Below are positions 21,838 to 49,219 of a stretch of 64,000 nucleotides of DNA, piece by piece. Positions within the stretch are counted from its first letter, which is position 1. Each line of letters starts with the position of its first letter. This DNA is from a virus (taxonomy: Duplodnaviria > Heunggongvirae > Uroviricota > Caudoviricetes). The position numbers and the translations under genes are program-made. The notes under the pieces were generated by a model. The model saw only the letters and a program-made list of their open reading frames with translations, was not told the DNA's origin and searched no databases. The stretch is taken from the IMG/VR virus record IMGVR_UViG_3300046786_000370, positions 15,927 through 79,926 of that record; one strand, given 5' to 3'.

Positions 21838-21914
21838 TGGTCGGAGTACAAGGATTCGAACCTTGGACCCCCTGGTCCCAAACCAGGTGCGCTACCAGAC
21901 TGCGCTACACTCCG
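21838..21914 (-). tRNA. tRNA-Pro (TGG)
   Basis: Cloverleaf folded by eye with GGTTCGAATCC T-arm, anticodon loop TTTGGGA and encoded CCA. Confidence 0.65.
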
Positions 21915-21921
21915 AATTAAT

Positions 21922-21996
21922 TGGTGGGTGATGAGAGGATCGAACTCCCGACAAACTGCGTGTAAGGCAGCGACTCTACCGCTGAGCTAATCACCC
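21922..21996 (-). tRNA. tRNA-Val (TAC)
   Basis: Folded by eye: acceptor GGGTGAT/ATCACCC, loop CTTACAC, CCA encoded. Confidence 0.65.
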
Positions 21997-22003
21997 TGTA
22001 TTT

Positions 22004-22216
22004 TTATTTAACTTCTTGCTTCTGTAGTTTATCAAACTTTGAAACTAATCGTTCATCGTTATAAACTTCTGTAACAGAAGGATCTGTTTTCTTTTCAGCT
22101 TCTATTTCCTTAGAGACTTTATCTCTGCCGAAAATAATGTCCCATCTATTGTTATACTCTTCTTGTGTAACGCTAAATGGGCGTGGTGCTGAACCTTTAC
22201 CTGCTTCATGTGCCAT
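22004..22216 (-). CDS. hypothetical small protein
   Basis: ORF trimmed to the internal Met (MAHEAGKGSAPRPF) because the longer form overlaps tRNA-Gly. Confidence 0.35.
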   Translation of the reverse strand: MAHEAGKGSAPRPFSVTQEEYNNRWDIIFGRDKVSKEIEAEKKTDPSVTEVYNDERLVSKFDKLQKQEVK

Positions 22217-22237
22217 AATGAATCCTTTATAATAATT

Positions 22238-22311
22238 TGGAGCGGGATAACAGAATCGAACTGTCAGCATTAGCTTGGAAGGCTAAGGTATTACCACTAT
22301 ACGAATCCCGC
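22238..22311 (-). tRNA. tRNA-Gly (TCC)
   Basis: GCGGGAT acceptor, loop CTTCCAA, T-arm CAGTTCGATTCTG. Confidence 0.65.
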
Positions 22312-22597
22312 ATCTTATTGAAACACACTTAAACCGTTCTTCAGTGCTATGGACACTATCTCCTAATCCAAGTAGGCGTAGGGTATGTGCTTCAATAAAA
22401 TGTCTAGCTACTCTCACCACAAGAGCCCTAGACCGAGCTGTTACTCTGTCCACGTGCTTTTCCATTTAGACGGGCAACGTCCCCGCCTTTGTGATTTCTC
22501 AAGTCGCTTTAAACAAGCCTTGCGGTAGATCCAATGCACCGTGCCGTTAAGGTGTAGCAATTACCTAACTCTGTTACGTTGAGTTAACACGGGGTTT

Positions 22598-22672
22598 GGT
22601 TGCGGAGGATGGATTCGAACCACCGTCTCCCAGGTTATGAGCCTGATAGTCTGACCTCTGACGTACTCCGCG
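22598..22672 (-). tRNA. tRNA-Met/Ile2 (CAT)
   Basis: Loop CTCATAA, T-arm GGTGGTTCGAATCCATC. Confidence 0.6.
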
Positions 22673-22684
22673 GTAAATATATTT

Positions 22685-23230
22685 ATGGTTAACTGTCTTA
22701 ATATAAACTTAGATATAAATCCTCTGAGAGAAGGTTTAGATATAAATTCATTTGACAAAATTAGACATGTCAAATTTTCGTTTGATGATATCAATCCTAA
22801 ATTAATTTCATTTTTTAATAATTTAAATTTAACAGTAACATGGGCAGAACTATTTTATGTTCCATCTTTCTTTTGTACTACAATACACACTGACATCGAC
22901 TGGCGTGGCAAAGAAAATGACTACACTAAAATAAACTATGTGTTCGGCGGCAAAGATAGTCGAATGTATTGGTGGAAGATTAAACCCGGAGTATCAAATA
23001 CAATTGAACGTACAGCCTTAAGTAGTCAGTATATAAATTACAAACAGGACCAAGTTGACCTAATCGAAGAACAATCTATTGGCTTTCCTAGTATAGTTCA
23101 AGCTGGGATACCACACAATATACGAACTTTTTCAGAAGCTAGACGCTGCCTAAGTTTAGTATTAAGAAAAGAATATAATACTAGATTAACTATGGCAGAG
23201 TCTATAGAAATATTCAAAGAATATTTATAA
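22685..23230 (+). CDS. small 2OG-Fe(II) oxygenase-like paralog
   Basis: IHTDIDW...PHNIRT...R. Confidence 0.45.
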   Translation: MVNCLNINLDINPLREGLDINSFDKIRHVKFSFDDINPKLISFFNNLNLTVTWAELFYVPSFFCTTIHTDIDWRGKENDYTKINYVFGGKDSRMYWWKIKPGVSNTIERTALSSQYINYKQDQVDLIEEQSIGFPSIVQAGIPHNIRTFSEARRCLSLVLRKEYNTRLTMAESIEIFKEYL

Positions 23231-23794
23231 CAATGCCTCTGCCATCAGCGTTTGAACTGTGTCTGCGTTAAGAACAATGTCTGTACGCACATTCAATTCC
23301 AACACTTCGTCTTGAAGCTTTTGTTTAGCTTTTTTAGCCAATCCAACAAATACTTTAAAACCTTTAATGTCTGCTTCTGTAAAAACAGTAGTAGTCACTG
23401 TGCTTTCAAAACCGTAGATACTGCGAGTATCTTCTTTACGGTTCTTAATCTTGTCCAACTTACCAAGTACAACTGCTTCTTGTTCGCGAACTTCATTACC
23501 AGCTAGTGCTGTATAATTTTGAATCTGCTTTTCAAGATAAGCAATCTCTGTAAGTTTGTCGTCAACACCCACACGACTGTTAGCGGCGCTAACTTGCTTG
23601 CGAATGTCATAGAGTGCTTTAACCAAAGAATCACGACGATTCAAATTAGTTTTGAACTCTGTTGTAGCCTTGTCAATTTCCATGATAGGACTATGGAACT
23701 CTGTTAGGCTAACTTGACCCTTTAGGTCAATACCTTTGATAGCATCATTGATGCTGTTTTGCAAAGCACTGGCTTTGCGTAGACTGATATTCAT
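23225..23794 (-). CDS. coiled-coil hypothetical protein
   Basis: 189 aa ORF. Confidence 0.4.
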   Translation of the reverse strand: MNISLRKASALQNSINDAIKGIDLKGQVSLTEFHSPIMEIDKATTEFKTNLNRRDSLVKALYDIRKQVSAANSRVGVDDKLTEIAYLEKQIQNYTALAGNEVREQEAVVLGKLDKIKNRKEDTRSIYGFESTVTTTVFTEADIKGFKVFVGLAKKAKQKLQDEVLELNVRTDIVLNADTVQTLMAEALL

Positions 23795-24323: not shown

Positions 24324-24382
24324 CAAACTAAATTTTAGATATAACAACTTAAATAGTCATATACATTTTTAATGAGGTAACT

Positions 24383-25483: not shown

Positions 25484-26032
25484 TTATTCCTTTATTAAAA
25501 AGTCTGGATCAGTTTTAAATCGAAAAGTTAACAACCCTCTTAAATGAGTTGTATTGTTCCATGCGCTGTGTGGTTTAGTTATATTAAGTAATACCGGACA
25601 AAACGATTTGTATTCTCCGATCTTTTCAACATACTCAGGCTCTACTTTAGAGTATACGACTTTGTCTCCATCTCTATGATTGATTTCTACTCGACGATCG
25701 CCAAGGAATTCATATACTCGTGTTGTAGAGGCGCCAGCCAAAGGTGTCAATGGTATATTGATAGCCAATTTTGGCCCGTCTTGCTCTTCATAGTCTACAT
25801 GAATATCTTGTTTAAATCCTGGTCTATGATTTATTAAAAATATCTGTGTGACTACTAGATCGTGTTTACCAAACCAATCAAACAAAGAAGGCATGAGATC
25901 TTTGACTTCTGATACTTCCATTTGCTGGAATTTGGATTCCGTTAATGGCCATTTATTAAGAAAATTATCAATGTCTTGTTTGTTATAATCAATGTACAGA
26001 TACTTAAAATAAAAGTCCGAGTTCTTTTGCAT
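25484..26032 (-). CDS. small 2OG-Fe(II) oxygenase-like paralog
   Basis: IHVDYEE...NIPL...PHSAWN...R. Confidence 0.45.
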   Translation of the reverse strand: MQKNSDFYFKYLYIDYNKQDIDNFLNKWPLTESKFQQMEVSEVKDLMPSLFDWFGKHDLVVTQIFLINHRPGFKQDIHVDYEEQDGPKLAINIPLTPLAGASTTRVYEFLGDRRVEINHRDGDKVVYSKVEPEYVEKIGEYKSFCPVLLNITKPHSAWNNTTHLRGLLTFRFKTDPDFLIKE

Positions 26033-26844
26033 TACGTTCTTTTCTTAATCAAATCAATGACAACGCCGCTGGGATCTACTTCCCACCAATTAACACGACC
26101 GAAATGGTATGCCTTTACGTCACCGTGGTGATTGTTATGCCAACATTCGCCTAATACCAATGGAAATAATATAGGTGCGTTGACGCTATTATCTCCGGTT
26201 TCATAATTTTTATAACCTAAGCTTTGGAAATGATTCAAGCAATTAGTTGCCGCATAGCTGTGAAATGTGATAAAGCTAGGAACTATGACAAACCAAATCC
26301 AAAAATCAAAACTAACTAATGCTATGATTAAATTTACTGCCCAGTACATTGGCATATAGTATTTGTGGCAAAATGCGTAAAAAGGTACTTTAAGTAAATC
26401 AATGATGTCTTTATAGTTAATGTCTTTTTCTTCAACTTTCCACAACCATAAGAACCAACTAGTAGCAATACCTTTTTTAGGTGTATGCGGATCTTTGTCT
26501 CCATCGCTATAAGGATGATGTAAGTTTCTGTGTATAGCGGTCCAGAATATAGGACTGCCCTGTCCTGCTAGCATGGCAAAGAATAGTATAACATATTTAA
26601 TAGGTGCCCAAGTTTCAAAACTCTTGTGACTAACATATCTATGATATCCGATAGTCACGCCTAGAACCATGATACAGAAGTAGCCCATGGCCAAATATAA
26701 CCAATAAATGTTTTGCCAATAACCCATGAATGCGCCAACAATAGCACTTACTGCAATTAAATTCATAGGTATTAAACCTCCCCATAAATTTTTATACTTA
26801 AAGGTTAAAGTTATAAATTCTTTGAATGTTAATTTGTTACGCAT
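26032..26844 (-). CDS. membrane fatty-acid desaturase
   Basis: His boxes HRYVSH, HRNLHH and WHNNHH. Confidence 0.75.
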   Translation of the reverse strand: MRNKLTFKEFITLTFKYKNLWGGLIPMNLIAVSAIVGAFMGYWQNIYWLYLAMGYFCIMVLGVTIGYHRYVSHKSFETWAPIKYVILFFAMLAGQGSPIFWTAIHRNLHHPYSDGDKDPHTPKKGIATSWFLWLWKVEEKDINYKDIIDLLKVPFYAFCHKYYMPMYWAVNLIIALVSFDFWIWFVIVPSFITFHSYAATNCLNHFQSLGYKNYETGDNSVNAPILFPLVLGECWHNNHHGDVKAYHFGRVNWWEVDPSGVVIDLIKKRT

Positions 26845-28015
26845 TTTTATTCCAGTTATAGGTTTTAGGCACCAAGTGTTCCCACTTTTTCGTACCAGTT
26901 CTTACTCTTATTTCACTATTTAGTAGAACTTTGCCCATGCTACCCCAAACCCAGTCTATGTCGGGCTGTGTGTTGGGAGGAACAATAATACTCCATTCAT
27001 AGTCATATGAACTGTCTATTTCTTTAAAATATCTATCTGCCACAGCCTGATATCTTCTGCTGTTTGTAGCAGGGATAACCATGTGCCATTTCTTTAAGCC
27101 GAAGCCTTCGCAGACTTCAAACATCTTAGTCCATAACTCTAGCATGCCGTTTGTTCTCACTGTATAACCAGGACGGCTTTTTAAATTACCTACTACCCAG
27201 CCATCGTTGTATGGTGCCGGTAAATCACATCTCCAACTCATACAACTAACTAACAAATCATCTTCGAAGTATCCATATAAGTGATGTACACTATCTTGAG
27301 GTTCTAAATACCACTTTTGCATGCCTTCTAGCCAGCGTGTTCTATATCGTAGAATGTCGCCAACATCATCAGCAAGCACATCGGTGATATTACCTTTTGT
27401 GTTGACTAAATCTTTTAATTGACCAAAGTCACTCATTGTTAGTCTGTGTATGCCGTTCTTTTTAGGATCTTCAACGTTTTTCCAGTCACTGATTTTACTA
27501 ACATCACCGTGATATATAATCTTTTGCCAGCACGATTCATCTTGTTCATTATTACAAGTTAAAAACTTTTCATCTGGAAGATAAAATTGTAGCCCAGTCA
27601 TTGCTGTCAGCTTTTTAGAAGCCCATCTTTGCCACTTACCGTCGCCTTGACGACTCATGAATACACCGTCGGCTTTTCTAAGTTCACACCAATTGATTTG
27701 ATCTTCTAATACCTTGGCAAATCCTTCATTGATATCAAAAATAGGATTAGACAAAATGTTTGGCTTCCATAGCCTATTTAGAATACGATAAGTGTTGTCT
27801 GGCCAACACGGTCTTTGTAATATGCTACAAACTATCTCGGGCTCTCCTGAATGTCCCCAATAAATAGTCTTAGCACTAACTTCACTGACATGATCCGGGC
27901 TGTAGTTTTTGTATAATCGATGTCCAACTTTGAGATAATGTAATTTTCTCAACTCTTCGTATATACCGTCTAATACTGGATCTGATACCCAAGTTACTGC
28001 TTGATTCTTATACAT
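26837..28015 (-). CDS. hypothetical protein
   Basis: 392 aa ORF. Confidence 0.45.
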   Translation of the reverse strand: MYKNQAVTWVSDPVLDGIYEELRKLHYLKVGHRLYKNYSPDHVSEVSAKTIYWGHSGEPEIVCSILQRPCWPDNTYRILNRLWKPNILSNPIFDINEGFAKVLEDQINWCELRKADGVFMSRQGDGKWQRWASKKLTAMTGLQFYLPDEKFLTCNNEQDESCWQKIIYHGDVSKISDWKNVEDPKKNGIHRLTMSDFGQLKDLVNTKGNITDVLADDVGDILRYRTRWLEGMQKWYLEPQDSVHHLYGYFEDDLLVSCMSWRCDLPAPYNDGWVVGNLKSRPGYTVRTNGMLELWTKMFEVCEGFGLKKWHMVIPATNSRRYQAVADRYFKEIDSSYDYEWSIIVPPNTQPDIDWVWGSMGKVLLNSEIRVRTGTKKWEHLVPKTYNWNKNA

Positions 28016-28186
28016 AATTTAAAAATGAAATTAATTCCTAGTCCTTGCAAAAGTATTTGTAGAATTCAAAACAATGTTTGTGTTGGTTGTAAACGCACTA
28101 AAGACGAAATTAACACTTGGTCTAAGTTGTCTAACGAACAGAAAAAAATCATTGTTGATAGAATTTCTAATCAATCTACTAATTAA
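28001..28186 (+). CDS. DUF1289-like small Cys-rich protein
   Basis: CKSICRIQNNVCVGCKRTKDEINTW pattern; plus-strand ORF in an inter-gene gap. Confidence 0.35.
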   Translation: MILIHNLKMKLIPSPCKSICRIQNNVCVGCKRTKDEINTWSKLSNEQKKIIVDRISNQSTN

Positions 28187-28830
28187 AGATATTTACACCT
28201 GTTAGGGTATTTTTCAGCACTTCTTTTAAAATGCTCTATCATCAAATCTTTGTCTTTGAGATTGTGTAGAGTTAACAAAATAATTTTGTTCACGCCATCT
28301 TCTCTATTAGAGCCATGTAAACATGTTGCATTGTTGTACGCAAACATATTTGTTTCTTTTGGCAAATCCGCATAGTTTACACCGCCTTGTGGATGATAAA
28401 CCTTGAAAGTTGGCAATGGATTTTCGTTGTAGATCATCGATCTAATAGCCACTGCTTCTGGAGCATAATCTCTGTGATATGGTATAGGTTGATTGCTCAT
28501 CCACAATCTACAAAATATAATCTCAGCCCATGGACAGGCCGCTTCTAAGTCTTCTATTACATTTGGAAATATTTCTTTGTAATCTAAAAAAGGCACTTCC
28601 CAGTGATTGTTTTCTAACATACTACTGTGTTTAGCGTAGATGTTTAAGCCTTTAAAGAAATCAATCTTTTTAGAATTTTCCGATGCTGTATTTCCAGCTG
28701 GATCGCTTTTTACAATATGACTAGAACCAGCATGTTTATTCCATGCGTTCCAGAAAAAGTCCCAATCATTTGGCTGTATCGGGGGTGCGTCTAATACAGT
28801 CCACACTAAATTTTCTTCATTAATATTCAT
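28183..28830 (-). CDS. cupin/2OG-Fe(II) oxygenase-like protein (tandem triplet member 1)
   Basis: YHRDYAP...CLHGSNRE. Confidence 0.45.
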   Translation of the reverse strand: MNINEENLVWTVLDAPPIQPNDWDFFWNAWNKHAGSSHIVKSDPAGNTASENSKKIDFFKGLNIYAKHSSMLENNHWEVPFLDYKEIFPNVIEDLEAACPWAEIIFCRLWMSNQPIPYHRDYAPEAVAIRSMIYNENPLPTFKVYHPQGGVNYADLPKETNMFAYNNATCLHGSNREDGVNKIILLTLHNLKDKDLMIEHFKRSAEKYPNRCKYL

Positions 28831-29495
28831 TGTAATTCCCAGGCTAGACCTTTGTCTTTAGATTCTTGTACTTGTTTTAACAATAAACCTTGATCTTTAA
28901 CTCTGCCAAAACTCTTCATCAATACTTTATAGTGACTAGGATCATAATCCGCACCATGGAAGAATTTTAGATTATTAAAGGCAAAGGTATTACGTTCTTG
29001 ATTATATGGAACGTATTTCTCTTCTCTAGTTTCGTTGCTACGTAGTTTAAATGTAGGACTTGGATTGTTGTCATATATTAAACTACGAACAGCCACAGGA
29101 GCAGGCTGTAATGGAGCAGGATCGATGTGATAAAACACTGGCTTAATACAAGCCCATAACACAACTACTTCACATTCGTACCATGGAAGTTTTTCTTCCA
29201 TTTCTTCTACATAAGCATTCCACATCTCAGGAGCATCTAATACAATGTTTTGCTTCCATGTACTACCTTTGAGATAGCTGTCATTCTTCATCCATGTAAT
29301 CATACCTTCGAAGTTGGCAGTATTATAAAGCAGTTGCAAATCATTGCCGCCACTGCTTAAATCTCCTAGGTTGTCTTTTTTCATTTTTGTTAACAACTCT
29401 TTTTTATCATTCCATATGTCCCAAAACAGAGGCATATTATTAGGATATAAAGGTGCAACGTCTGGTATGAAATATCCTATCTTGCTTAAATCCAT
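28827..29495 (-). CDS. cupin/2OG-Fe(II) oxygenase-like protein (tandem triplet member 2)
   Basis: FYHIDPAP...FFHGADYD; ATGA coupling with its neighbour. Confidence 0.45.
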   Translation of the reverse strand: MDLSKIGYFIPDVAPLYPNNMPLFWDIWNDKKELLTKMKKDNLGDLSSGGNDLQLLYNTANFEGMITWMKNDSYLKGSTWKQNIVLDAPEMWNAYVEEMEEKLPWYECEVVVLWACIKPVFYHIDPAPLQPAPVAVRSLIYDNNPSPTFKLRSNETREEKYVPYNQERNTFAFNNLKFFHGADYDPSHYKVLMKSFGRVKDQGLLLKQVQESKDKGLAWELQ

Positions 29496-31538: not shown

Positions 31539-31758
31539 TTAAATGATCCAGCAAATGGCCAACAGTTCTGATGTCATTTTCTGGGTCTGGAATTTCTACG
31601 TTATATCGTTTTTCAAATTCCATTTGAAGTTCAACAATATCTAAACTGTCTAATCCAAGATCTTGGATTGGTGTGTCTCTGTTAATTTCTGGAAGTTGCT
31701 TTTTAAATAAATCATCGAAGGCCGATTTTAAAAAGTCAAATTTTTCTTGGTCTGTCAT
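31531..31758 (-). CDS. acyl carrier protein
   Basis: LGLDSLDIVEL phosphopantetheine-attachment motif; 75 aa acidic protein. Confidence 0.7.
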   Translation of the reverse strand: MTDQEKFDFLKSAFDDLFKKQLPEINRDTPIQDLGLDSLDIVELQMEFEKRYNVEIPDPENDIRTVGHLLDHLNV

Positions 31759-31804
31759 GTTGTCCTCATTAAAAAATTATAAAGTATTTAAGAAATTGTG
31801 CCAC

Positions 31805-33284: not shown

Positions 33285-33378
33285 TTTATATTAAAGCACA
33301 CTAATGTCCTGTAGCTTTAACAGGCCTCAGACTTTTTCAAATCTCGCAGTCACACGTCAATGTGCTTTAATATAAATG
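33285..33378. repeat. inverted repeat TTTATATTAAAGCACAC ... GTGTGCTTTAATATAAA
   Basis: About 17-nt arms separated by ~55 nt; the core TTAAAGCAC also appears in the inverted repeat at 46645-46690. Confidence 0.55.
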
Positions 33379-33379
33379 C

Positions 33380-33600
33380 TCTGCATCCCCCGGCGGTAAT
33401 TATAGAGTATCAAGATACGATGCTATCGTACCCATCACACACTCCTTCCACCCGCTCCCCGCAGGGACCGTTCTCGCATTGCCAGCGGCCTTTCGGTTTA
33501 AAGACTACCACCCGTAGTTGTCACGCTACTTCTCATCGTGTGGGTCACACTATCCGGAGACACCCGGAACGTTCTTTCGCATAAATATTTTATGCGTCCA
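33380..33600. other. GC-rich ORF-poor island (candidate structured RNA)
   Basis: Locally GC-rich compared with the AT-rich flanks; several hairpins; contains CCGCAG and GTTTAAAGACTAC, which weakly resemble group-I intron Q/R elements. Confidence 0.3.
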
Positions 33601-33741: not shown

Positions 33742-33816
33742 TGGAAGAGCCACGGGGAATCGAACCCCGCTTCTCAGGATGAAAACCTGATGTCCTAACC
33801 GATAGACGATGGCTCC
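33742..33816 (-). tRNA. tRNA-Glu (TTC)
   Basis: Loop TTTTCAT, T-arm GCGGGGTTCGATTCCCCG. Confidence 0.65.
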
Positions 33817-33897: not shown

Positions 33898-33973
33898 TGG
33901 TGGAGGAGACAGGGATCGAACCTGCGACCTATTGCTTGCAAAGCAACCGCTCTCCCAACTGAGCTACACCCCC
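33898..33973 (-). tRNA. tRNA-Ala (TGC)
   Basis: G3:U70 pair, loop TTTGCAA, D-arm GCTCAGTTGGGAGAGC. Confidence 0.65.
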
Positions 33974-33983: not shown

Positions 33984-34058
33984 TGGCTCCAGAGGCAGGG
34001 ATCGAACCTACGACCAATTGATTAACAGTCAACTGCACTACCGCTGTGCTACTCTGGA
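33984..34058 (-). tRNA. tRNA-Asn (GTT)
   Basis: Loop CTGTTAA. Confidence 0.6.
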
Positions 34059-34435
34059 ATATTGAATTTGTAAGTAGTATCACCATCGTTATTGATACCA
34101 TTCACCCAAGTATATAAAGCCGGCTGGGACTCGGTACGTCACTTGGGATACTAGTCCAGTTAGCAACCAATCTGCGGAGATCTTCCGATCTCCCGGGAGT
34201 TGAACCCGTCCCCTTTTACTATTTCGGTAGTTCGAACTTACCTAGATAGCGTGACATTCTCTTGCTGACACTTACAAAAATGGCGGGAGCCTAACTATCT
34301 TGTTGTTAGCAAGCCTCGTTAGATTGTCTCGAATAGGCAAGTTTATACACCCATCAATCATACTATAGTGTCATCACAGTTAACCCCACTGTGACTAGAT
34401 TGACAGGGACTCAAACCTATCGTCTATCCCATAAT

Positions 34436-34512
34436 TGGCGCACCGGAGGGGACTCGAACCCCTGGCCTCCGCCGTGACAGGGCGGCGTTATAACCAACTT
34501 AACTACCGGTGC
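34436..34512 (-). tRNA. tRNA-Asp (GTC)
   Basis: Loop CTGTCAC, acceptor GCACCGG/CCGGTGC. Confidence 0.65.
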
Positions 34513-34602: not shown

Positions 34603-34692
34603 TGGTGGAAGACTAGGGAGTCGAACCCTATGACCGTATTACTACAGTCTACAGATTAGCAATCTGCTGCATTACCGTCCTGCCCGTCTTCC
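34603..34692 (-). tRNA. tRNA-Ser (GCT), type II
   Basis: 90 nt with a long variable arm; loop TTGCTAA. Confidence 0.6.
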
Positions 34693-34915: not shown

Positions 34916-34992
34916 TGGTGCCCAGGGCGAGACTCGAACTCGCAAAATTTGGCTTCTAAGACCAACACGTATACCAATTCCATCACCTGGGC
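34916..34992 (-). tRNA. tRNA-Leu (TAG)?, type-I-like
   Basis: Loop CTTAGAA but a short variable arm, which is unusual for Leu. Confidence 0.45.
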
Positions 34993-35053: not shown

Positions 35054-35082
35054 ATTATACATGTTCAGTTAATTTGTGTCAA
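35054..35082 (-). promoter_or_regulatory. sigma70-like promoter (TTGACAcaaatt-N-TATAAT) upstream of the tRNA island
   Basis: 17-nt spacer; a second copy lies at 35138..35166. Confidence 0.55.
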
Positions 35083-35137
35083 CTAATTCTTTTTACTTTT
35101 GTAAAAGTCTTTGCTAACACATTTAACTAACTTAAAT

Positions 35138-35166
35138 CTATTATAGCAAAATAATTGATTTGTGTC
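35138..35166 (-). promoter_or_regulatory. sigma70-like promoter module, tandem copy
   Basis: TTGACAcaaatc-N17-TATAAT. Confidence 0.55.
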
Positions 35167-35318
35167 AATTATCTTCCTTGAATTTTTCGCAGTAGCTTTA
35201 GCCAATAAAACCTAAAGCCACGGAATGTGAGTATGTCAAAGTCAATATTGACCATTGGTTCTTTGGGAATACTTCCATAAGCTTTGTCTAATGTGTCAGA
35301 TATTTTTTTTGGCATACG

Positions 35319-35919: not shown

Positions 35920-36591
35920 TTAACTCCAAAGTAGGTCAAAGTTTCCTTGTAGCACTTTTTTTGTACTGGATACTTTGTCGGTTATGTGATCTTGTACCCT
36001 ATCATCTTGAAAGCGGTACGTTCTTATTTTATCTCCTCGCATCCCGGAACCAACTTGTTCTCGTCTATTTGAGGCTATACTGTTATTATACTCTGCGCTG
36101 ACTATGTTGTCAACTTTATTGGTTATTGTAGACATTGCTTCGTTATAACTGTTTTCTCTACTGCGGCATTGTGCTGTAGCAACTATACCAGAAGGTATGT
36201 GTGTTATGCGGCAACTGTTTTGATGTTTATTGCGATGTTGTCCGCCAGCACCAGTTCCGCTGTACCATTCTATTTTAAGATCCCGTTCAGCGATAGTTGT
36301 TTTAACTATTTCGGGATCTACAATGGCCACGGTTACTGTGCTGGTATGTACTCTGCCTTTACGTTCAGTGGGAGGAACACGTTGTATTCTATGTCCGCCA
36401 CTTTCGTTATACAAGCCTGATAAATCAGCACCCTCGACTAATATATGTACTTCGCCAAGATACTCACCTATTAGGCGGGTAGTTCAGCCAAGTTTACCAG
36501 CGAATTTTGTATATGCTTGAGCAAGGTCTTTGACAAACAACTTGCTGTCTTCGCCGCCTTCTGCGGCTCTAATTTCTATAACTCGTTTCAT
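35920..36591 (-). CDS. class-I peptide chain release factor homolog (RF1-type PPT motif, GGQ; lacks domain 1) with one in-frame TGA
   Basis: Hand translation: MKRVIEIRAAEGGEDSKLFVKDLAQAYTKFAGKLG-TGA-TTRLIGE...ESGGHRIQRVPPTERKGRVHTS...GTGAGGQHRNKHQNSCRITHIPSGIV...RTYRFQDDRVQDH; a single frame from 36591 to 35920 broken only by TGA at 36486..36484. Confidence 0.7.
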
Positions 36592-41290: not shown

Positions 41291-41305
41291 TCTATTATTT
41301 ATAAG

Positions 41306-41380
41306 TGGTGCCACAGACTGGACTCGAACCAGTAACACAAGAATTTTCAGTCCTCTGCTCTACCATTGGAGCTACTGTGG
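41306..41380 (-). tRNA. tRNA-Phe (GAA)
   Basis: Loop CTGAAAA, D-arm GCTCCAATGGTAGAGC. Confidence 0.65.
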
Positions 41381-41382
41381 CT

Positions 41383-41945: not shown

Positions 41946-42491
41946 ATGAATAACCCCGACTTTTACCGACCGATACATATTGAAAACCTTAAAGAAATTC
42001 AAGAAGAGGTAATGAATCTGTTGCCAGAAAAATTACTCACTTACTCAAGCTTAACTTATATAGAAAATAATAAAGAAATTTTTTTAAGTTCTAATAAATT
42101 ATCTGATTACTTAAAAAGTAAAAAAATATATGATACTACTGGCGCCATTGCAGTTAATATTACTAAGGGTTTCGGTGCCGGAACTTATCACGTAGATAGC
42201 GGTCCGTATAAACATAGTCTAAATATACCGATTTCTGGCTGCGAAAATACTTGGATTAATTTCTTTAAAGTCAATAGTGATTATACCACCGTTACAGTAG
42301 AAAATGACGGGTTAGCTCATCGTTATTTTAGATACACAGAAGATCAGTGTGAATTAATCTATGAAGCAGAAACATCAGTGCCTTATCTACTTGGAACAAA
42401 AACTCCGCATCGTGTTATTAATAAATCAAACAATACAAGAGTTATGCTATTAGTAAGATTATTTTCTAGTCCTTATATAAATGAGTTATAA
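41946..42491 (+). CDS. small 2OG-Fe(II) oxygenase-like paralog
   Basis: YHVDSGP...NIPI...PHRVIN...RVMLLVR. Confidence 0.5.
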   Translation: MNNPDFYRPIHIENLKEIQEEVMNLLPEKLLTYSSLTYIENNKEIFLSSNKLSDYLKSKKIYDTTGAIAVNITKGFGAGTYHVDSGPYKHSLNIPISGCENTWINFFKVNSDYTTVTVENDGLAHRYFRYTEDQCELIYEAETSVPYLLGTKTPHRVINKSNNTRVMLLVRLFSSPYINEL

Positions 42492-43027: not shown

Positions 43028-43101
43028 TGGTGCCCCACGACAGAATCGAACTGCCATATTCGGATTACAAAACCGACGTAATGCCATTATACGAGTAGGG
43101 C
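43028..43101 (-). tRNA. tRNA-Thr (TGT)
   Basis: Loop TTTGTAA. Confidence 0.55.
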
Positions 43102-43108: not shown

Positions 43109-43184
43109 TGGGGTAAAGGATGGGACTCGAACCCACAACAACTGGAATCACAATCCAGGGCTCTACCATTGAGCTACCTTCACC
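43109..43184 (-). tRNA. tRNA-His (GTG)
   Basis: Extra G-1 opposite C73, loop TTGTGAT. Confidence 0.65.
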
Positions 43185-43185: not shown

Positions 43186-43260
43186 TGGTGGTGATAGTTA
43201 GATTCGAACTAACGACCGGCCGCGTATGAAGCGGATGCACTACCACTGTGCTATATCACC
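43186..43260 (-). tRNA. tRNA-Met/Ile2 (CAT)
   Basis: Loop TTCATAC, acceptor GGTGATA/TATCACC. Confidence 0.6.
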
Positions 43261-43856: not shown

Positions 43857-43933
43857 TGGCCGGCCCTGAGAGATTCGAACTCCCAACTTCCAGTTTCGAA
43901 GACTGGCACTCTATCCAATTGAGTTAAGGACCG
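43857..43933 (-). tRNA. tRNA-Arg (TCG)
   Basis: Loop CTTCGAA. Confidence 0.6.
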
Positions 43934-43937: not shown

Positions 43938-44027
43938 TGGTGGAAGCGGTGAGATTCGAACTCACGGACCGTTGCCAGTCGACAGTTTTCAAGACTGTTG
44001 CAATAAACCGGGCTCTGCCACACTTCC
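43938..44027 (-). tRNA. tRNA-Ser (TGA), type II
   Basis: 90 nt; loop CTTGAAA. Confidence 0.6.
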
Positions 44028-44221: not shown

Positions 44222-44295
44222 TGGAGCGGGATAGGAGAATCGAACTCCTAACTAAACCTTGGCAAGGTTTCGTTTGACCATTAAACTAATCCCGC
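44222..44295 (-). tRNA. tRNA-Gly (GCC)
   Basis: Loop TTGCCAA. Confidence 0.6.
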
Positions 44296-44301: not shown

Positions 44302-44841
44302 TTATTTAATAAGATATTCTGGACTAATACCTTTAAAGCTACAAGTAAAACTTATTCTAGGACCTGGCAAGTCGGGTGGTGTGTAGACACCGTGCGGTAT
44401 ACCCGGATCAAAGAAAACTGGCTTTAATAATTCTAATCGATCTATTTCTTTAAGTGGAAAATCTTTGCCTATTCTCCACCAAACGTTGCCTTTTCCTTCG
44501 ACTACTCTTGTTATTGTATTGCCATTTAGATCATAAAATTTAGTATATGATCTTTGACAATTTCTAACAGGAAATAAAAACCTAATGTCTTTACCATCAT
44601 CTATGTGTGTTTCTTCATAGCCAATGCGTCTAAAAACAAACGCACTTATATCAACTGGCTGGTCGACAAATTTTTTAAGCTCGATGAACAACTCTGGAAT
44701 ATAGTTTTGTAATACACTAGTTGACACTGGTGTCCAATCTCTTTTTGCTTGTAAAATATCTGTACGATTTACAACAAAATCATAGAGCTTGTTTGCTATT
44801 AAAGTTTCATTTTCGATGTCAACGAATTTGTATATTGCCAT
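44302..44841 (-). CDS. small 2OG-Fe(II) oxygenase-like paralog
   Basis: THIDDGKD...PHGVYTP. Confidence 0.45.
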   Translation of the reverse strand: MAIYKFVDIENETLIANKLYDFVVNRTDILQAKRDWTPVSTSVLQNYIPELFIELKKFVDQPVDISAFVFRRIGYEETHIDDGKDIRFLFPVRNCQRSYTKFYDLNGNTITRVVEGKGNVWWRIGKDFPLKEIDRLELLKPVFFDPGIPHGVYTPPDLPGPRISFTCSFKGISPEYLIK

Positions 44842-44855: not shown

Positions 44856-44929
44856 TGGCATACCCCCAAGGATTCGAACCTTGACCAGCGGTTTTGGAGA
44901 CCGATATGCTGCCATTACACTAGGGATAC
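44856..44929 (-). tRNA. tRNA-Trp (CCA)
   Basis: Loop CTCCAAA. Confidence 0.55.
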
Positions 44930-44932: not shown

Positions 44933-45010
44933 TGGAGTAGGGGGTCGGATTTGAACCGACGGTTTTAGGGATTTGCAATCCCTTGCATTGGGCCGCTCTG
45001 CCACCCCTAC
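44933..45010 (-). tRNA. tRNA-Cys (GCA)
   Basis: Loop TTGCAAA, acceptor GTAGGGG/CCCCTAC. Confidence 0.6.
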
Positions 45011-45083: not shown

Positions 45084-45158
45084 TGGTAGCCATGGACAGT
45101 TTCGAAATGTCGACCTATCGCTTATCAAGCGATTGCTCTTCCTCTGAGCTACACGGCT
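45084..45158 (-). tRNA. tRNA-Ile (GAT)
   Basis: Loop TTGATAA. Confidence 0.6.
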
Positions 45159-45162: not shown

Positions 45163-45238
45163 TGGTCTCGCATGTAGGACTCGAACCTACGATGTCTCCG
45201 CCCCAAACGGAGTGGTATAGCCACTAACCGAATGCGAG
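45163..45238 (-). tRNA. tRNA-Pro (TGG), second copy
   Basis: Loop TTTGGGG; sequence differs from the copy at 21838. Confidence 0.55.
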
Positions 45239-45245
45239 ATAAAAT

Positions 45246-45320
45246 TGGTATCACTGGATGGAATCGAACCACCGTTCCGAACTTCGTAGGATCGTGTATT
45301 CTCCACTATACGACAGTGAT
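45246..45320 (-). tRNA. tRNA-Arg (ACG)
   Basis: Loop CTACGAA. Confidence 0.55.
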
Positions 45321-45325
45321 GTATT

Positions 45326-45399
45326 TGGCAGAGGGTACAAGAATCGAACTTGTGACAACGGAATCAAAATCCGTGGTTATACCATTTAACTAACCCCCA
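45326..45399 (-). tRNA. tRNA-Gln (TTG)
   Basis: Loop TTTTGAT; acceptor stem imperfect. Confidence 0.5.
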
Positions 45400-45407
45400 A
45401 CAAAAAC

Positions 45408-45483
45408 TGGTACCTGGTGTAAGGATCGAACTTACGACATCCCACTTGTAAGGAGGGTGCTACTACCTCTGAGCTAACCAGGC
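45408..45483 (-). tRNA. tRNA-Val (TAC), second copy
   Basis: Loop CTTACAA. Confidence 0.55.
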
Positions 45484-45486
45484 AAA

Positions 45487-45575
45487 AATTGGTGCAGCCA
45501 AAGGACTCGAACCTTTGTGGCAACTAGTATTAGACGCTCGTCGCTCGTTGCCGGGCGCCCGCCTTCTCCATCACT
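45487..45575 (-). tRNA. atypical tRNA-like element (type II or degenerate)
   Basis: Good T-arm AAAGGTTCGAGTCCTTT and CCA end, but the body carries a GC palindrome (GCCGGGCGCCCGCC) and a CGCTCG direct repeat; no clean anticodon arm. Confidence 0.3.
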
Positions 45576-45583
45576 GCTTAACT

Positions 45584-45658
45584 TGGTGGACCAGTAGGGA
45601 CTCGAACCCTAATTCACGACGTGCAAAGCCGTTGTAATTCCCTCTATACTACAAGCCC
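45584..45658 (-). tRNA. tRNA-Ala (TGC), second copy
   Basis: G3:U70 pair, loop TTTGCAC, and the same position-6/67 mismatch as the first Ala copy. Confidence 0.5.
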
Positions 45659-45777
45659 ATATAGAAACACTTTCGATATTAGTTCAATGCTGGCACATTG
45701 AACCGTTCGCTACTGCCAGGTAACCGAATAATACACCGCGCCATTGCGATGCCATACCCGTCAAAAATGTTTTTATA

Positions 45778-45852
45778 TGGCGACTCGTGGGAGAATCGAA
45801 CTCCCGTCTACGGATAGACAATCCGCGATAATAACCACTATATGAACGAGCC
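45778..45852 (-). tRNA. tRNA-Asp (GTC)?, second copy
   Basis: Loop TTGTCTA, which has a pyrimidine at position 37. Confidence 0.45.
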
Positions 45853-45858
45853 TAAATT

Positions 45859-45933
45859 TGGCACTCGGTACGGGAATCGAACCCGTCTTTACAACTTGAA
45901 AGGCTGTCGTCCTAACCGATAGACGAACCGAGT
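45859..45933 (-). tRNA. tRNA-Glu (TTC), second copy
   Basis: Loop CTTTCAA; shares the TCGTCTATCGGTTAGGAC D-arm with the copy at 33742. Confidence 0.55.
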
Positions 45934-45938: not shown

Positions 45939-46014
45939 TGGTAGGACCAGCGAGATTCGAACTCGCGACCAATGGATTAAAAGTCCACTGCTCTACCAGC
46001 TGAGCTATAGTCCC
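45939..46014 (-). tRNA. tRNA-Lys (TTT)
   Basis: Loop CTTTTAA, D-arm GCTCAGCTGGTAGAGC. Confidence 0.65.
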
Positions 46015-46403: not shown

Positions 46404-46490
46404 TGGTGGAGACGACTGGAGTCGAACCAGTAGTGCCTTTCGGGCGGCGGATTTACAGTCCACTGGGGTTACCAATTTTCCTACATCTCC
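46404..46490 (-). tRNA. tRNA-Tyr (GTA), type II
   Basis: 87 nt; loop CTGTAAA; long variable arm GCCCGAAAGGC. Confidence 0.6.
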
Positions 46491-46494: not shown

Positions 46495-46586
46495 TGGTAC
46501 CCCCGGCGGGAATCGAACCCACATGAACCAATTATCTGTTGCTTACGGGATATAAATCCGCCGTTTTACCGTTAAACTACAGGGGC
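46495..46586 (-). tRNA. atypical 92-nt tRNA-like gene (anticodon loop TTTATAT, anticodon TAT?)
   Basis: Good acceptor, D-arm and T-arm, but a 22-nt extra region without a clean variable stem. Confidence 0.35.
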
Positions 46587-46644
46587 ATATTTGTAAACAC
46601 ACTGTCTGCGACATTTCAGTCCATGCCAGCTCAATGTGTGTATT

Positions 46645-46690
46645 AAAGCACTCTAGGGGTCTGTGTTCTAGATTGCTCTAGACTAGAGTG
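46645..46690. repeat. inverted repeat GTATTAAAGCACTCTAG ... CTAGAGTGCTTTAATAC
   Basis: 17-nt arms; shares the TTAAAGCAC core with the inverted repeat at 33285. Confidence 0.5.
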
Positions 46691-46804
46691 CTTTAATACG
46701 AACTAATTTTTCCTCCCACACAAGGGATTCCATCCTAGTCGCCGCCCGTTTGCTCCATGTTTTAAGTGCGGAGCCAGGACCTCGTTTCCTGCTATTCACA
46801 CTTT

Positions 46805-46972
46805 GCGATCATCGATGTTTGTGAAGGAACATCTCCCGCTTTGATAAAGCTAAGTGCATTTCTTCAGCACGTTTTAACTTATTAAGAATCAGTTGTTTAG
46901 TCTGATCCTGAGTTAAAGTATTCTGTCGAAGCCACTCTACTTCTTTTAATTTTTTAATATCTGTCTCTGTCA
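46805..46972 (-). CDS. hypothetical small protein (56 aa)
   Basis: ORF MTETDIKKLKEVEWLRQN... with AAGGAAT RBS; shorter than the ORF-track cutoff. Confidence 0.35.
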
Positions 46973-47007
46973 TAATTCCTTGTTACAAACAAAAAACCCT
47001 AGGGTTT

Positions 47008-47040
47008 TTAAGCCTAGGGTCCTTGGAAGTTAAAATGTAA
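47008..47040 (-). terminator. rho-independent terminator CCCTAGG-loop-CCTAGGG followed by TTTTTT
   Basis: Hairpin plus T-run on the minus strand, downstream of the 47063..47200 gene. Confidence 0.5.
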
Positions 47041-47062
47041 TATTATTACACTTTGGTCTCCT

Positions 47063-47200
47063 GGACCCTAATTTGCTCCGGTGTGCGATCATAACTAATT
47101 TCAATAGATATCCAATTAGATGAAGGCACGAAGCCCATCTGCTTGGCAGTATTAAAATGTTTATGACATACAATCGTTTGCATCTTTTTATTTCCTTTAC
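47063..47200 (-). CDS. hypothetical small protein (45 aa)
   Basis: ORF with AAAGGAAATAAAAAG RBS; promoter module at 47225..47253. Confidence 0.35.
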
Positions 47201-47224
47201 ACGCTTTCTTTAGCGTATGTGTCT

Positions 47225-47253
47225 ATTATATACTTATTTAGTCTTTGTGTCAA
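47225..47253 (-). promoter_or_regulatory. sigma70-like promoter TTGACAcaaag-N-TATAAT
   Basis: 17-nt spacer. Confidence 0.5.
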
Positions 47254-47285
47254 TATCTTTTGGACATCAACATAAAAATATTTTT

Positions 47286-47359
47286 GGTGCCCAATGTCTG
47301 ATTCGAACAGACGACCTACCGCTTACAAGGCGGTTGCTCTACCCCTGAGCTAATCGGGC
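47286..47359 (-). tRNA. tRNA-Thr (TGT), second copy
   Basis: Loop CTTGTAA, D-arm GCTCAGGGGTAGAGC; promoter-like TTGACA-N17-TACAAT ends about 10 nt upstream. Confidence 0.6.
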
Positions 47360-47407
47360 TTTGTTTAACTTGTATCTATTGTATGTTATTTACTAGTTTG
47401 TGTCAAA

Positions 47408-48166
47408 TTATTTCTTAACTTCTACTAATTTAATTAGCCAAGCTAATGGATCTATTTCCCAGAACTTGTGTCTAGTACTATAATTTTTTGCATCACTATG
47501 GTGATTGTTGTGCCATGCTTCGCCTAGTATGATGGGCCACAACCAAGCATTGTTTCTACTTTGATCTTTTGTTTCATAATTCCTATAACCGTGTGTGTGA
47601 CCAAAATAATTGAAGTTGCTGGTACTAAGCTGAATTAACATAGCAGGAACAATCCAAGACCAATATAAAAATTCCAAGTCAATGATTCCTACAACAACTA
47701 CAACGGGCAACAATAAAAGCATATACCACTTATGTATGAATAACTGTGCGGGAGTCATTAGTTCCTTGACTAAGAAAATCTTCATTTCACCTTCCTGTTT
47801 TTTCATATGACCAAAGCCAAATAGTTTATAGCCAAGGTTGTAAGGGCTATGTGGATCTTTTTCTTCATCACTGTAAGCATGATGTAGTCTATGTAAATAA
47901 ACCCAACCTAATACACTACCGCGGCCCGCCAGTAATGCTATAGCAGAAAACAACCAATGAAGAACAGGATTTAATTCAAAGCTTTTGTGGCTATAATATC
48001 TATGTAACGTCATCCATATGCCCAGGATGTTTAATACATAGAAACTAATTAACATCAGTAATATATTACTTAATGTGTAGTCAACAAAGAATAAACCAAC
48101 AATACTTACTATGAAAAGAAAAATTGTTAGTATTCCTATATTTCTACTAGTAGATCCAAATGTCAT
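47408..48166 (-). CDS. membrane fatty-acid desaturase
   Basis: His boxes HRYYSH, HRLHH and WHNNHH. Confidence 0.7.
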   Translation of the reverse strand: MTFGSTSRNIGILTIFLFIVSIVGLFFVDYTLSNILLMLISFYVLNILGIWMTLHRYYSHKSFELNPVLHWLFSAIALLAGRGSVLGWVYLHRLHHAYSDEEKDPHSPYNLGYKLFGFGHMKKQEGEMKIFLVKELMTPAQLFIHKWYMLLLLPVVVVVGIIDLEFLYWSWIVPAMLIQLSTSNFNYFGHTHGYRNYETKDQSRNNAWLWPIILGEAWHNNHHSDAKNYSTRHKFWEIDPLAWLIKLVEVKK

Positions 48167-48942
48167 TTGCGTATAACTTCTATTATTCTAGCTGTGGGAT
48201 CAAACTCCCACCACTTGCCGCTAGTACCTGTACCAAAATCATAGTTACCAGGACGAGCATGATGGTTGTTATGCCATCCTTCGCCAAATGTAAAAATAGC
48301 GTTGATCCATAAGTTACGACTGTTGTCAGTTGTTTCGAAGTTTCTATAACCCCACTTATGGTTCATATAGTTGCTGGTTGTACTACTCCATACGCTGATA
48401 ACTGCAGGAATAATAACAACGTGAATGGCTAACACAGGATCAATCAATGCCCATAATAGCGTCCATAACAATAGTAAACCAAAGTACCATTTATGCATAA
48501 AAACATGATACTTGTCAAAAATTAAATGACGAATCTTCCATTTGTTTGGTTCATAGTCATATGCGGCTACCAGCATCTTAGGACCGCTGACTAATGGGCT
48601 ATGCGGATCGCCAGGCTTATCGCTGTATTTGTGATGGTCTCTGTGCATACCTACCCATCCAATGGCACTACCTGTAAATGCCAAGGCGCCCCAAGTAGAA
48701 CAAAAGTATTCCCAGAATTTAGTTGTCTTGAAACTTTTATGTGTTAGTAGCCTATGAAAGCCAATGCTAATACCAAAACAGCCGATACCTACGTACATTA
48801 GCACACTTAATAGCCAAAGCGATGCTATTTGTGGAAATGAAAATGCATAGAGTAAAACAATTACTGTTGCAGTAATTTGAACGCCGGGTAAGTATTCTGT
48901 GTTAGACGCAAATACGTTGTTAATGATTCTTTTATAGGACAT
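48163..48942 (-). CDS. membrane fatty-acid desaturase
   Basis: His boxes HRLLTH, HRDHH and WHNNHH; ATGA-coupled to the neighbouring desaturase. Confidence 0.7.
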   Translation of the reverse strand: MSYKRIINNVFASNTEYLPGVQITATVIVLLYAFSFPQIASLWLLSVLMYVGIGCFGISIGFHRLLTHKSFKTTKFWEYFCSTWGALAFTGSAIGWVGMHRDHHKYSDKPGDPHSPLVSGPKMLVAAYDYEPNKWKIRHLIFDKYHVFMHKWYFGLLLLWTLLWALIDPVLAIHVVIIPAVISVWSSTTSNYMNHKWGYRNFETTDNSRNLWINAIFTFGEGWHNNHHARPGNYDFGTGTSGKWWEFDPTARIIEVIRK

Positions 48943-48972
48943 AAACGTATTTATCGACTAACAATTTTATAA

Positions 48973-49047
48973 TGGTCCGGCCAGCAGGAATCGAACCCAC
49001 ATTCGCGAGGTAGAAGCTCGCTGTATTATCCATTATACTATGGCCAG
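48973..49047 (-). tRNA. tRNA-Arg (TCT)
   Basis: Loop CTTCTAC. Confidence 0.55.
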
Positions 49048-49053
49048 GTAAAT

Positions 49054-49128
49054 TGGTGCGCCCACGTGGGATCGAACCACGACTCAAGGGATTATGAGTC
49101 CCCTGCTTTACCATTAAGCTATAGGCGC
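49054..49128 (-). tRNA. tRNA-Met/Ile2 (CAT), third CAT tRNA
   Basis: Loop CTCATAA; GGG/CCC pairs in the anticodon stem. Confidence 0.55.
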
Positions 49129-49135
49129 AATTATT

Positions 49136-49219
49136 TGGTGCCCGGGGCCGGACTCGAACCGGCATGCCTTTCGACGGGAGATTTTAAGTCTCCTGTGTAT
49201 ACCATTTCACCACCCGGGC
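49136..49219 (-). tRNA. tRNA-Leu (TAA), type II
   Basis: 85 nt; loop CTTAAAA; acceptor GCCCGGG/CCCGGGC. Confidence 0.65.

Follow-up and report, generated by a model that had tools for sequence, protein, structure and literature searches.

A near-complete tRNA gene array in a probable uncultured huge phage, with divergent isoacceptor copies probably drawn from a shared phage gene pool

A 64,000-nucleotide stretch of the IMG/VR virus record IMGVR_UViG_3300046786_000370 (positions 15,927 to 79,926; the window, taken at its full length) carries, from position 21838 to 49219, 34 tRNA genes that all lie on the minus strand and represent all 20 amino acids and the initiator with 26 distinct anticodons; TGG, TAC, TTC, GTC, TGC and TGT occur in two copies each and CAT in three. 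The explanation that, in our judgment, probably holds is that this is the decoding array of a huge phage, expressed early in infection, whose strikingly different same-anticodon copies would have come from turnover within a tRNA gene pool shared with related phages.

The genes themselves are not in question. ARAGORN and Rfam RF00005 return the identical 34, with Rfam scores of 44.7-74.1 bits (the gathering score is 29), and a permissive Rfam scan of 21-50 kb gave no tRNA-like match beyond them; CCA is encoded at the 3' end of all 34. With two methods in agreement, these are genuine cloverleaf tRNA genes. An earlier note on this DNA, made from the letters alone, had counted about 35 genes covering all 20 amino acids: the coverage stands, and the count drops to 34, one of which, the TAT gene at 46495-46586, had been overlooked. 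The 33 genes and anticodons that the note did name, three CAT tRNAs among them, are correct gene for gene by both methods; the boundaries it gave, 21838 and 49219, fall exactly on the first and last gene; and the automated search it had called for, here the ARAGORN run, finds every gene named and leaves the duplicates with the anticodons assigned to them.

The islands at 21.8-41.4 kb contribute 11 tRNAs, for 10 amino acids plus the initiator (each gene below was called by both programs, lies on the minus strand and is given with its Rfam score). They comprise tRNA-Pro(UGG) copy 1 (21838..21914, 66.0 bits; 100% identical copies occur in L193, L166 and L164, L-numbers denoting related tRNA-array loci), Val(UAC) copy 1 (21922..21996, 61.7 bits), Gly(UCC) (22238..22311, 60.5 bits) and a CAU tRNA of initiator type (22597..22672, 54.3 bits); then Glu(UUC) copy 1 (33742..33816, 55.4 bits), Ala(UGC) copy 1, with G3.U70 (33898..33973, 65.9 bits), Asn(GUU) (33984..34058, 67.3 bits), Asp(GUC) copy 1 (34436..34512, 71.0 bits), Ser(GCU) (34603..34692, 44.7 bits) and a Leu(UAG) of 77 nt that lacks a long variable arm (34916..34992, 59.0 bits); and, further on, Phe(GAA) (41306..41381, 62.3 bits).

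The group at 43.0-49.2 kb is larger, with 23 tRNAs for 18 amino acids; Asn, Phe and the initiator are missing from it. It opens with Thr(UGU) copy 1 (43028..43101, 54.2 bits), His(GUG) (43109..43183, 65.9 bits) and a CAU tRNA assigned to elongator Met by elimination (43186..43260, 69.1 bits), and continues with Arg(UCG) (43857..43933, 63.5 bits), Ser(UGA) (43938..44027, 53.4 bits), Gly(GCC) (44222..44295, 65.4 bits), Trp(CCA), with U11:A24 as read from the sequence (44856..44929, 55.3 bits), Cys(GCA) (44933..45010, 59.4 bits) and Ile(GAU) (45084..45158, 59.6 bits). A tight run follows in which second copies, each with its identity to the first, alternate with single genes: Pro(UGG) copy 2 (45163..45238, 52.3 bits; 56.8%), Arg(ACG) (45246..45320, 52.8 bits), Gln(UUG) (45326..45399, 58.7 bits), Val(UAC) copy 2 (45408..45483, 53.8 bits; 71.4%), Ala(UGC) copy 2, again with G3.U70 (45584..45658, 52.4 bits; 61.5%), Asp(GUC) copy 2, with U37 (45778..45852, 50.9 bits; 62.0%), and Glu(UUC) copy 2 (45859..45933, 57.6 bits; 67.1%). 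The array is completed by Lys(UUU) (45939..46014, 74.1 bits), Tyr(GUA) (46404..46490, 47.9 bits), a 92-nt Ile(UAU) with an inserted extra arm (46495..46586, 54.9 bits), Thr(UGU) copy 2 (47285..47359, 69.7 bits; 60.0% identical to copy 1), Arg(UCU) (48973..49047, 55.7 bits), a CAU tRNA of probable Ile2 (lysidine) type (49054..49128, 70.1 bits) and a class II Leu(UAA) (49136..49219, 58.4 bits).

Are the duplicated tRNAs recent copies of each other? The earlier note had described the Pro, Val, Glu, Asp, Ala and Thr pairs as clearly different, and they are: same-anticodon copies are 57-71% identical, and tRNAs with different anticodons in the window share 57.8 +/- 4.9%. Copies that resemble each other no more than unrelated tRNAs do are not recent in-place duplications; the sequences thus support an independent origin of the copies, and the duplicates are old. 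Both members of a pair nonetheless look fit for use: G3.U70 in Ala, C1:G72 and A73 in Pro, G1:C72 and C2:G71 in Thr, and G73 in Asp, which we take to be identity elements, are kept in both copies, so both are probably functional.

Relatives of the window show where such copies might come from. A 27-mer from the extra-arm tRNA served to gather 119 related tRNA-array loci, on which we ran ARAGORN. For each tRNA of the window the closest counterpart lies in a different locus, often with 96-100% identity (Pro copy 1 in L193/L166/L164, Val copy 1 in L109/L115, Ala copy 1 in L108, Tyr in L193, Thr copy 2 in L124), and gene order varies widely among the loci. With best matches scattered over so many contigs, the array reads as a mosaic assembled from a shared phage tRNA pool. 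Divergent same-anticodon pairs are also common in this pool: among 50 loci with at least 15 tRNAs, such pairs occur for CAT in 33, Glu in 9, Pro and Asp in 7 each, Ala, Ile-GAT and Asn in 6 each, Tyr in 5 and Thr in 3, with median identities of 54-66%. They therefore appear to be a general property of the phage tRNA pool; the two copy types of the window occur together in no related locus. Divergent copies would arise as genes, singly or in small blocks, turn over in the long term within a pool that huge phages of one large clade have in common.

How would this array be expressed and used? If one mismatch at most is allowed, TTGACA-17-TATAAT occurs 19 times in the window, each time on the minus strand, vs 2.6 times on both strands of shuffled sequence; most have the extended form TTGACAcaaat...TATAATa (examples lie at 63962-63990, 56654-56682, 37876-37904 and 13384-13412). 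Four stand directly before tRNA islands, and three islands begin 19-148 nt downstream of such promoters. On the minus strand, a 12/12 consensus sigma-70 promoter (49268..49296) lies 49 nt upstream of tRNA-Leu(UAA), an 11/12 promoter (47378..47406) 19 nt upstream of Thr copy 2, a consensus promoter (47225..47253) 639 nt upstream of Ile(UAU), and two consensus promoters (35054..35168) 62 and 148 nt upstream of Leu(UAG). With near-consensus promoters upstream, the islands look like early units of the host RNA polymerase, and the window may well be an early region; classical sigma-70 promoters presumably also argue against a Bacteroidota host. The tRNA genes share their strand with the surrounding early genes, and host polymerase would transcribe multi-gene precursors soon after infection, which host RNase P and 3' nucleases would trim to the encoded CCA and host synthetases would charge.

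Codon use in the window fits such a set. Its open reading frames (ORFs) favor A- and U-ending codons, and for every A-ending codon there is a cognate phage tRNA. Each four-codon box has a U34 tRNA and each two-codon set one tRNA, Arg being read by ACG, UCG and UCU and Gly by UCC and GCC; C34 is confined to the CAT and CCA anticodons, and the array serves Met with an initiator and an elongator and Ile by three routes. Given broad wobble at U34, the set would thus be both minimal and complete; the assumption fits the rarity of most C-ending codons left uncovered (CUC 2.8, UCC 1.7 and ACC 4.7 per 1000), although GCC (12.3) and GUC (7.9) are not rare. Wobble would let the set decode every sense codon in the AT-rich phage genes, and its role may be to sustain phage translation in the face of a host tRNA pool that is poorly matched, depleted or cleaved. 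Three related arrays contain, in addition, a tRNA with the CUA (amber suppressor) anticodon (L085:4321-4395, L128:1747-1821 and L204:12132-12208), which the window lacks.

The three CAT tRNAs appear to have three different jobs. The tRNA at 22597-22672 has a C1xA72 mismatch and G11:C24, which make it initiator type, as well as G30G31:C39C40, that is, two of three anticodon-stem G:C pairs; an unpaired 1:72, purine11:pyrimidine24 and G:C pairs at the base of the anticodon stem are the features we take to mark initiators. The tRNA at 49054-49128 has C4:G69, C5:G68 and G27.U43, presumably the determinants by which TilS recognizes Ile2 for lysidine modification, and its best E. coli match (80%) is annotated tRNA-Ile; these two lines of comparison point to the Ile2 type. 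That leaves 43186-43260 as the likely elongator Met, for which the comparison with E. coli is ambiguous. A 393-aa protein with the PP-loop motif SGGADS is encoded at 39180-40361 (plus strand), and the relative L246 has a PF01171 PP-loop gene nearby. A role of the 393-aa protein as a phage TilS is unsupported: it has no Pfam and no PDB match, and a weak match to the WbuX amidotransferase (E 0.023).

What kind of genome is this? Relatives and gene content make it probable that the window comes from an uncultured huge (jumbo) bacteriophage. Its isocitrate lyase has counterparts in more than 200 IMG/VR viral contigs at 82-93% identity, some of them 338-374 kb long; the proteins closest to its metallophosphoesterase, at 33-38% identity, are those of jumbo phages; and cultured phages yielded no match beyond single tRNAs. 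A 468-aa protein of the window turned up no viral relative, and a search for exact copies of one of its proteins came back empty. Both tens of tRNAs and isocitrate lyase have been reported from huge phages (10.1101/2025.02.27.640493). An origin in a cellular genome, a plasmid or a giant eukaryotic virus might be suggested by the many metabolic genes (isocitrate lyase, symporter, TerC, desaturases, radical SAM enzymes) and by the lack of a virion gene in the window; it is very improbable, given that the relatives are IMG/VR viral contigs, that the extra-arm tRNA pattern turns up in only three phage-like arrays among 185,579 species genomes, that CCA is encoded in the tRNA genes, that the promoters are of the bacterial sigma-70 type and lie on a single strand, and that most proteins belong to no known family.

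The origin of the duplicates leaves more room for dispute. The earlier note had proposed two independently acquired tRNA sets, which would come from two donors and overlap in the duplicates. The independence of the copies is borne out, and their being as divergent as unrelated tRNAs would fit two donors. Pro, Val, Ala, Asp and Glu, moreover, all have their second copy within one 7-gene run at 45163-45933, for which chance, by our own arithmetic for five of 23 genes, gives 261/33649 or ~0.008; second copies score lower than first ones (50.9-57.6 vs 55.4-71.0 bits with the general tRNA model), four of the five have at most one relative in the pool that reaches 80% identity (Glu copy 2 has 17), and a partial order, Asp-Ala...Val...Pro, is common to both groups. 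The picture of two sets fits poorly, however. Neither group is complete, at 10 and 18 amino acids; only five of 26 anticodons are common to both, and both Thr copies sit in the second group; neighboring tRNAs have their nearest relatives in different contigs; and the two copy types are never found together in a related locus. We consider two donors unlikely.

Could the second copies instead be there for what they do? A divergent isoacceptor might survive nucleases or modifying toxins and so insure the phage against host defenses that target tRNAs, as the earlier note had also suggested: phage tRNAs have been shown to rescue infection from PtuAB, PrrC and PARIS, and anticodon-loop changes are known (PMC10264068, PMC11555353, PMC12409363). 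Within the anticodon loop, paired copies of the window do differ, though only at 32, 37 and 38, and strong early promoters precede the tRNAs, as reported for T5 tRNA-Tyr. But the differences are scattered over the whole molecule, with no focus on the loop. The best-known targets of tRNA nucleases are Lys, Tyr, Arg, His, Asn and fMet, which are single-copy here, whereas Pro, Val and Ala are doubled; insurance is a possibility that we would not favor. The U37 of Asp copy 2, for its part, stands in the loop UUGUCUA at a position where a purine is almost universal. Gene dosage is the more doubtful idea. Val, Ala, Asp, Glu and Thr, at 5.5-6.7% of residues each, are well used, and GAA is the top codon (52 per 1000), as one would expect if the phage doubled the tRNAs for its commonest codons; yet Lys (6.9%, with AAA at 49 per 1000) and Asn (5.8%) are single and Pro (4.0%) is doubled, and near-identical duplicates, the simpler solution, are not seen.

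Several points also weigh against our preferred explanation, a decoding array shaped by turnover from a shared pool. The gathered loci are partial (up to ~21 kb) and were chosen by one tRNA motif, so that the duplicate frequencies and the mosaic picture describe a biased sample. The 7-gene run speaks for this block, at least, having been acquired or retained whole. No virion or structural gene lies within the window, whose assignment to a phage draws on relatives and gene content.

The most unusual member of the array is the tRNA-Ile(UAU) that the earlier count had missed. It has an ordinary 7/5 cloverleaf with the anticodon UAU, U33 and A37, and a 22-nt variable region that folds into a hairpin with one bulged G in its 5-bp stem and CAGAUAA as its 7-nt loop, that is, the long, stem-loop-forming variable arm that defines class II tRNAs. 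The family was found in the window and in L081-L199, L210-L245, L200 and L201: at least 119 IMG/VR contigs match a 27-mer of this tRNA exactly, and a second subtype occurs in 36 further contigs. Some 41 cultured phage records, among them Vibrio phage henriette 12B8 and T5-like Thalassavirus, contain such a tRNA, annotated there only as tRNA-Ile. Among 185,579 species genomes the pattern gave five matches, three in phage-like arrays within metagenome bins and two chance matches outside tRNAs; nearly absent from species genomes, the extra-arm tRNA appears to be restricted to viruses. A phage tRNA-Ile(UAU) with an extra arm was not described in the literature that we searched, which lay largely outside subscription journals.

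Different parts of this molecule vary to very different degrees. Across 60 distinct copies, both-side changes occur in six of seven acceptor pairs and four of five T-stem pairs (10/12), with 99.8-100% of positions paired, and positions 8-63 are invariant except for Y/G at 16; about 29 of the invariant positions fall outside the 27-mer used for collection. The D region comes in five distinct versions with a mean identity of 0.98, vs 13-60 versions and 0.56-0.87 in other tRNA families compared in the same loci at equal acceptor-stem divergence. In the second subtype, the 31:39 pair is A.C, G.U or G:C, and G45 of the arm pairs with U or C (G45.Y60). The anticodon is UAU in every tRNA that bears the extra arm.

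Does such a tRNA still carry isoleucine? With the hairpin removed, the closest families of its body are CAT, TGT, GAT, GAA and TAC, all class I, and not Leu, Ser or Tyr. AUA makes up 19.3 per 1000 codons in window ORFs, and where window ATA codons are aligned to homologs, 56% of the aligned codons are Ile (ATT/ATC/ATA), 11% Val and 8% Leu (n=167 cells); columns with Leu codons, by comparison, have 70-82% Leu in the homologs. ATA sites that align with Ile codons mean that AUA is used as Ile. Two known tRNA types come to mind nonetheless. The nematode nev-tRNA(UAU) is derived from tRNA-Leu and leucylated (PMC3333845); it shares with the phage tRNA the UAU anticodon, the long variable arm and A73, but the phage tRNA has a class I body and a codon used as Ile. 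Bacterial allo-tRNAs have 8/4 or 9/3 acceptor/T stems (PMC5389517). They too have a long variable arm, UAU is among their commonest anticodons and some occur in phages; the phage tRNA, by contrast, has a 7/5 geometry supported by covariation. Charging with Leu or Ser in the manner of nev- or allo-tRNAs is thus disfavored by the 7/5 geometry, the class I body and the alignment of ATA with Ile. In bacteria without TilS, of the Mycoplasma mobile type, AUA is read by an ordinary 76-nt tRNA-Ile(UAU) together with an adapted isoleucyl-tRNA synthetase (IleRS). The phage tRNA resembles these in reading AUA through a UAU anticodon instead of lysidine, and differs from them in the inserted hairpin and in the Ile2(CAU) gene that lies in the same array.

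If the body of this tRNA is so ordinary, what is the arm for? We consider it likely that the arm is a sequence-specific element recognized by a protein and tied to AUA decoding. The loop invites a bolder thought. The tRNA-Ile(GAU) genes of related arrays have anticodon loops UUGAUAA or CUGAUAA, and GAUAA, also present in the extra loop, is what we take to be the anticodon-loop identity set of tRNA-Ile(GAU); the true anticodon loop of the extra-arm tRNA has U34 and U or C at 38, and lacks G34 and A38. The extra loop could therefore be imagined to mimic an Ile anticodon loop, such that host IleRS or another Ile factor accepts or protects the tRNA and AUA is read in a virus-specific way without lysidine. 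Such mimicry would explain why the D, anticodon and extra arms are frozen in more than 150 viral contigs when the acceptor and T stems drift, and why the arm is found solely with the UAU anticodon. Geometry is a real objection to it, and we regard it as improbable. The extra loop also contains AUA, the cognate codon itself.

The opposite change is seen in tRNA-Leu(UAG) at 34916-34992, which has a Leu-type D arm and A73, yet a variable loop of 5 nt. It is not alone: short Leu tRNAs account for 27 of 75 UAG, 31 of 34 CAA and 8 of 81 UAA tRNAs in the related pool and also occur with GAG and AAG, so that they appear to form a family in related arrays.

Several of the spacers between tRNAs are free of ORFs and conserved across arrays, and two of them hold putative structured RNAs, both on the minus strand. 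Element F (34055..34295, ~240 nt), between tRNA-Asp and tRNA-Asn, begins directly after the upstream CCA and includes a T-arm-like hairpin, CGGGUUCAACUCCCG; full-length matches occur in 23 of 99 other loci searched (114-264 bits), both sides change in 35 of 48 pairs, and 95.6% of positions are paired, vs 33-48% when partners are slid. Element A (33355..33580, ~225 nt), downstream of tRNA-Glu, is present in 17 related loci, with both-side changes in 28 of 54 pairs and 97% pairing. The pairing figures of both are somewhat inflated, the alignments having been fitted to the elements' own models; covariation nevertheless supports them as RNAs, and neither has an Rfam family or a match in cultured phages. 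The possibility, suggested by the T-arm-like hairpin, that F is a tmRNA or Y RNA was rejected: Rfam gives only a 15-nt T-arm match, and ARAGORN no tmRNA. The T4 tRNA cluster encodes two stable RNAs, species 1 and 2. A and F are like them in being non-tRNA structured RNAs between tRNA genes, probably cut from the same precursor, and unlike them in that no sequence or Rfam relationship to them was found and that the elements here, at 215-240 nt, are common to many huge-phage contigs. Three other minus-strand spacers, 22394-22596, 45659-45777 and 46587-47284, are conserved as DNA in 20, 9 and 20 related loci; 22394-22596, the only one of the three checked, has no convincing minus-strand ORF.

Near the tRNAs lies a release factor gene that seems to need help to be made. 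The release-factor-1-like gene (35920..36591, minus strand) matches Pfam RF-1 (1.5e-20) and the end of PCRF (3.3e-10), and its translation has GGQ and P-P-T motifs, at the positions that we take to be those of the RF1 GGQ and the PxT codon-recognition tripeptide. It has 223 codons, starts inside the PCRF domain without an N-terminal domain, and is interrupted by TGA at codon 36 (36484-36486), presumably a conserved Trp position of RF1. The TGA is kept in four homologs that are ~70% identical (L106, L124, L139 and L166). Is UGA simply Trp in this phage? Of 77 long ORFs in the window, 19 stop at TGA, translation with code 4 extends these by no more than a few codons, and no UCA tRNA exists among the 34 tRNAs of the window or the 2053 of related loci; genome-wide reading of UGA as Trp is thereby rejected for the window, where TGA is a normal stop. 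The gene may instead be subject to programmed UGA read-through, with its output tied to weak termination by RF2. Phages with recoded stop codons keep their code-change modules in standard code and use a UCA suppressor tRNA (10.1101/2021.08.26.457843). The window resembles them in having a phage RF1-type release factor near tRNA genes; it differs in that the RF1-like gene itself holds the in-frame UGA, that no UCA tRNA is present and that TGA ends many genes.

The tRNA islands also contain small proteins of another kind. A 179-aa protein with a predicted 2-oxoglutarate (2OG)/Fe(II) oxygenase fold, supported by motif and structure model, is encoded inside the tRNA cluster (44302..44841, minus strand), and paralogs lie in or beside tRNA islands at 21280-21834, 22685-23230 and 41946-42491, on the plus strand; three of the four paralogs are thus on the strand opposite to everything else. 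The HxD...H metal triad and the putative 2OG-binding Arg (H79, D81, H150 and R162) are invariant, the structure model has a pLDDT of 90.4, and its top PDB matches are all 2OG oxygenases; by motif and model, the four small paralogs are predicted to be 2OG/Fe(II) oxygenases. The HxD...H...R motif and the 2OG-oxygenase fold of the 179-aa relative speak against taking the three plus-strand ORFs for homing endonucleases of tRNA cassettes, similar to SegB of T4. In L202, the oxygenase homolog comes directly after tRNA-Cys.

Most proteins of the window belong to no known family. The recognizable auxiliary genes encode isocitrate lyase, a dicarboxylate/amino-acid (DAACS) symporter, a solute-binding protein and TerC; four fatty-acid-desaturase-like and three radical SAM proteins; and a PfkB kinase, an SPFH protein, two metallophosphoesterases, a cysteine phosphatase, an AdoMet-decarboxylase-like protein and a GNAT. 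Metabolic and auxiliary genes are dense at 1298-8372, 16024-20502, 26032-33235, 38706-41338 and 47408-48942, and the isocitrate lyase gene has no ATA codon at all. At 49324-52486 (minus strand) 12 small, overlapping tandem genes form one family (71-140 aa, ~20-30% identity) with the tail [FLI]xL[KRTM][WF][SG] in nearly all, an MVM start in several and no Pfam match. One related tRNA array is on a contig binned to a Bacteroidetes metagenome-assembled genome.

Large tRNA arrays are familiar from huge phages of the type described by Al-Shayeb and from KVP40, Atu_ph07, XacN1 and T5. Like these, the window has tens of clustered tRNA genes on one strand, covering most or all amino acids, interspersed with small genes that have no annotated function, in an early or accessory region; unlike them, its clade has no cultured member, and its array holds an extra-arm tRNA-Ile(UAU), an arm-less tRNA-Leu, two RNAs without a family and a release-factor-like gene. 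As a tRNA complement, it is one more case of a known pattern, in which huge phages bring their own decoding set. Beyond this, the window points to a large clade of uncultured phages among which tRNA genes are pooled and reshuffled, and this pool holds unusual architectures, Ile(UAU) tRNAs with a gained arm and a frozen core and Leu tRNAs that have lost theirs, in arrays that also carry conserved structured RNAs without a family and a release factor gene that would be completed only via UGA read-through. These odd members may bear on how phages take over translation or insulate their own.

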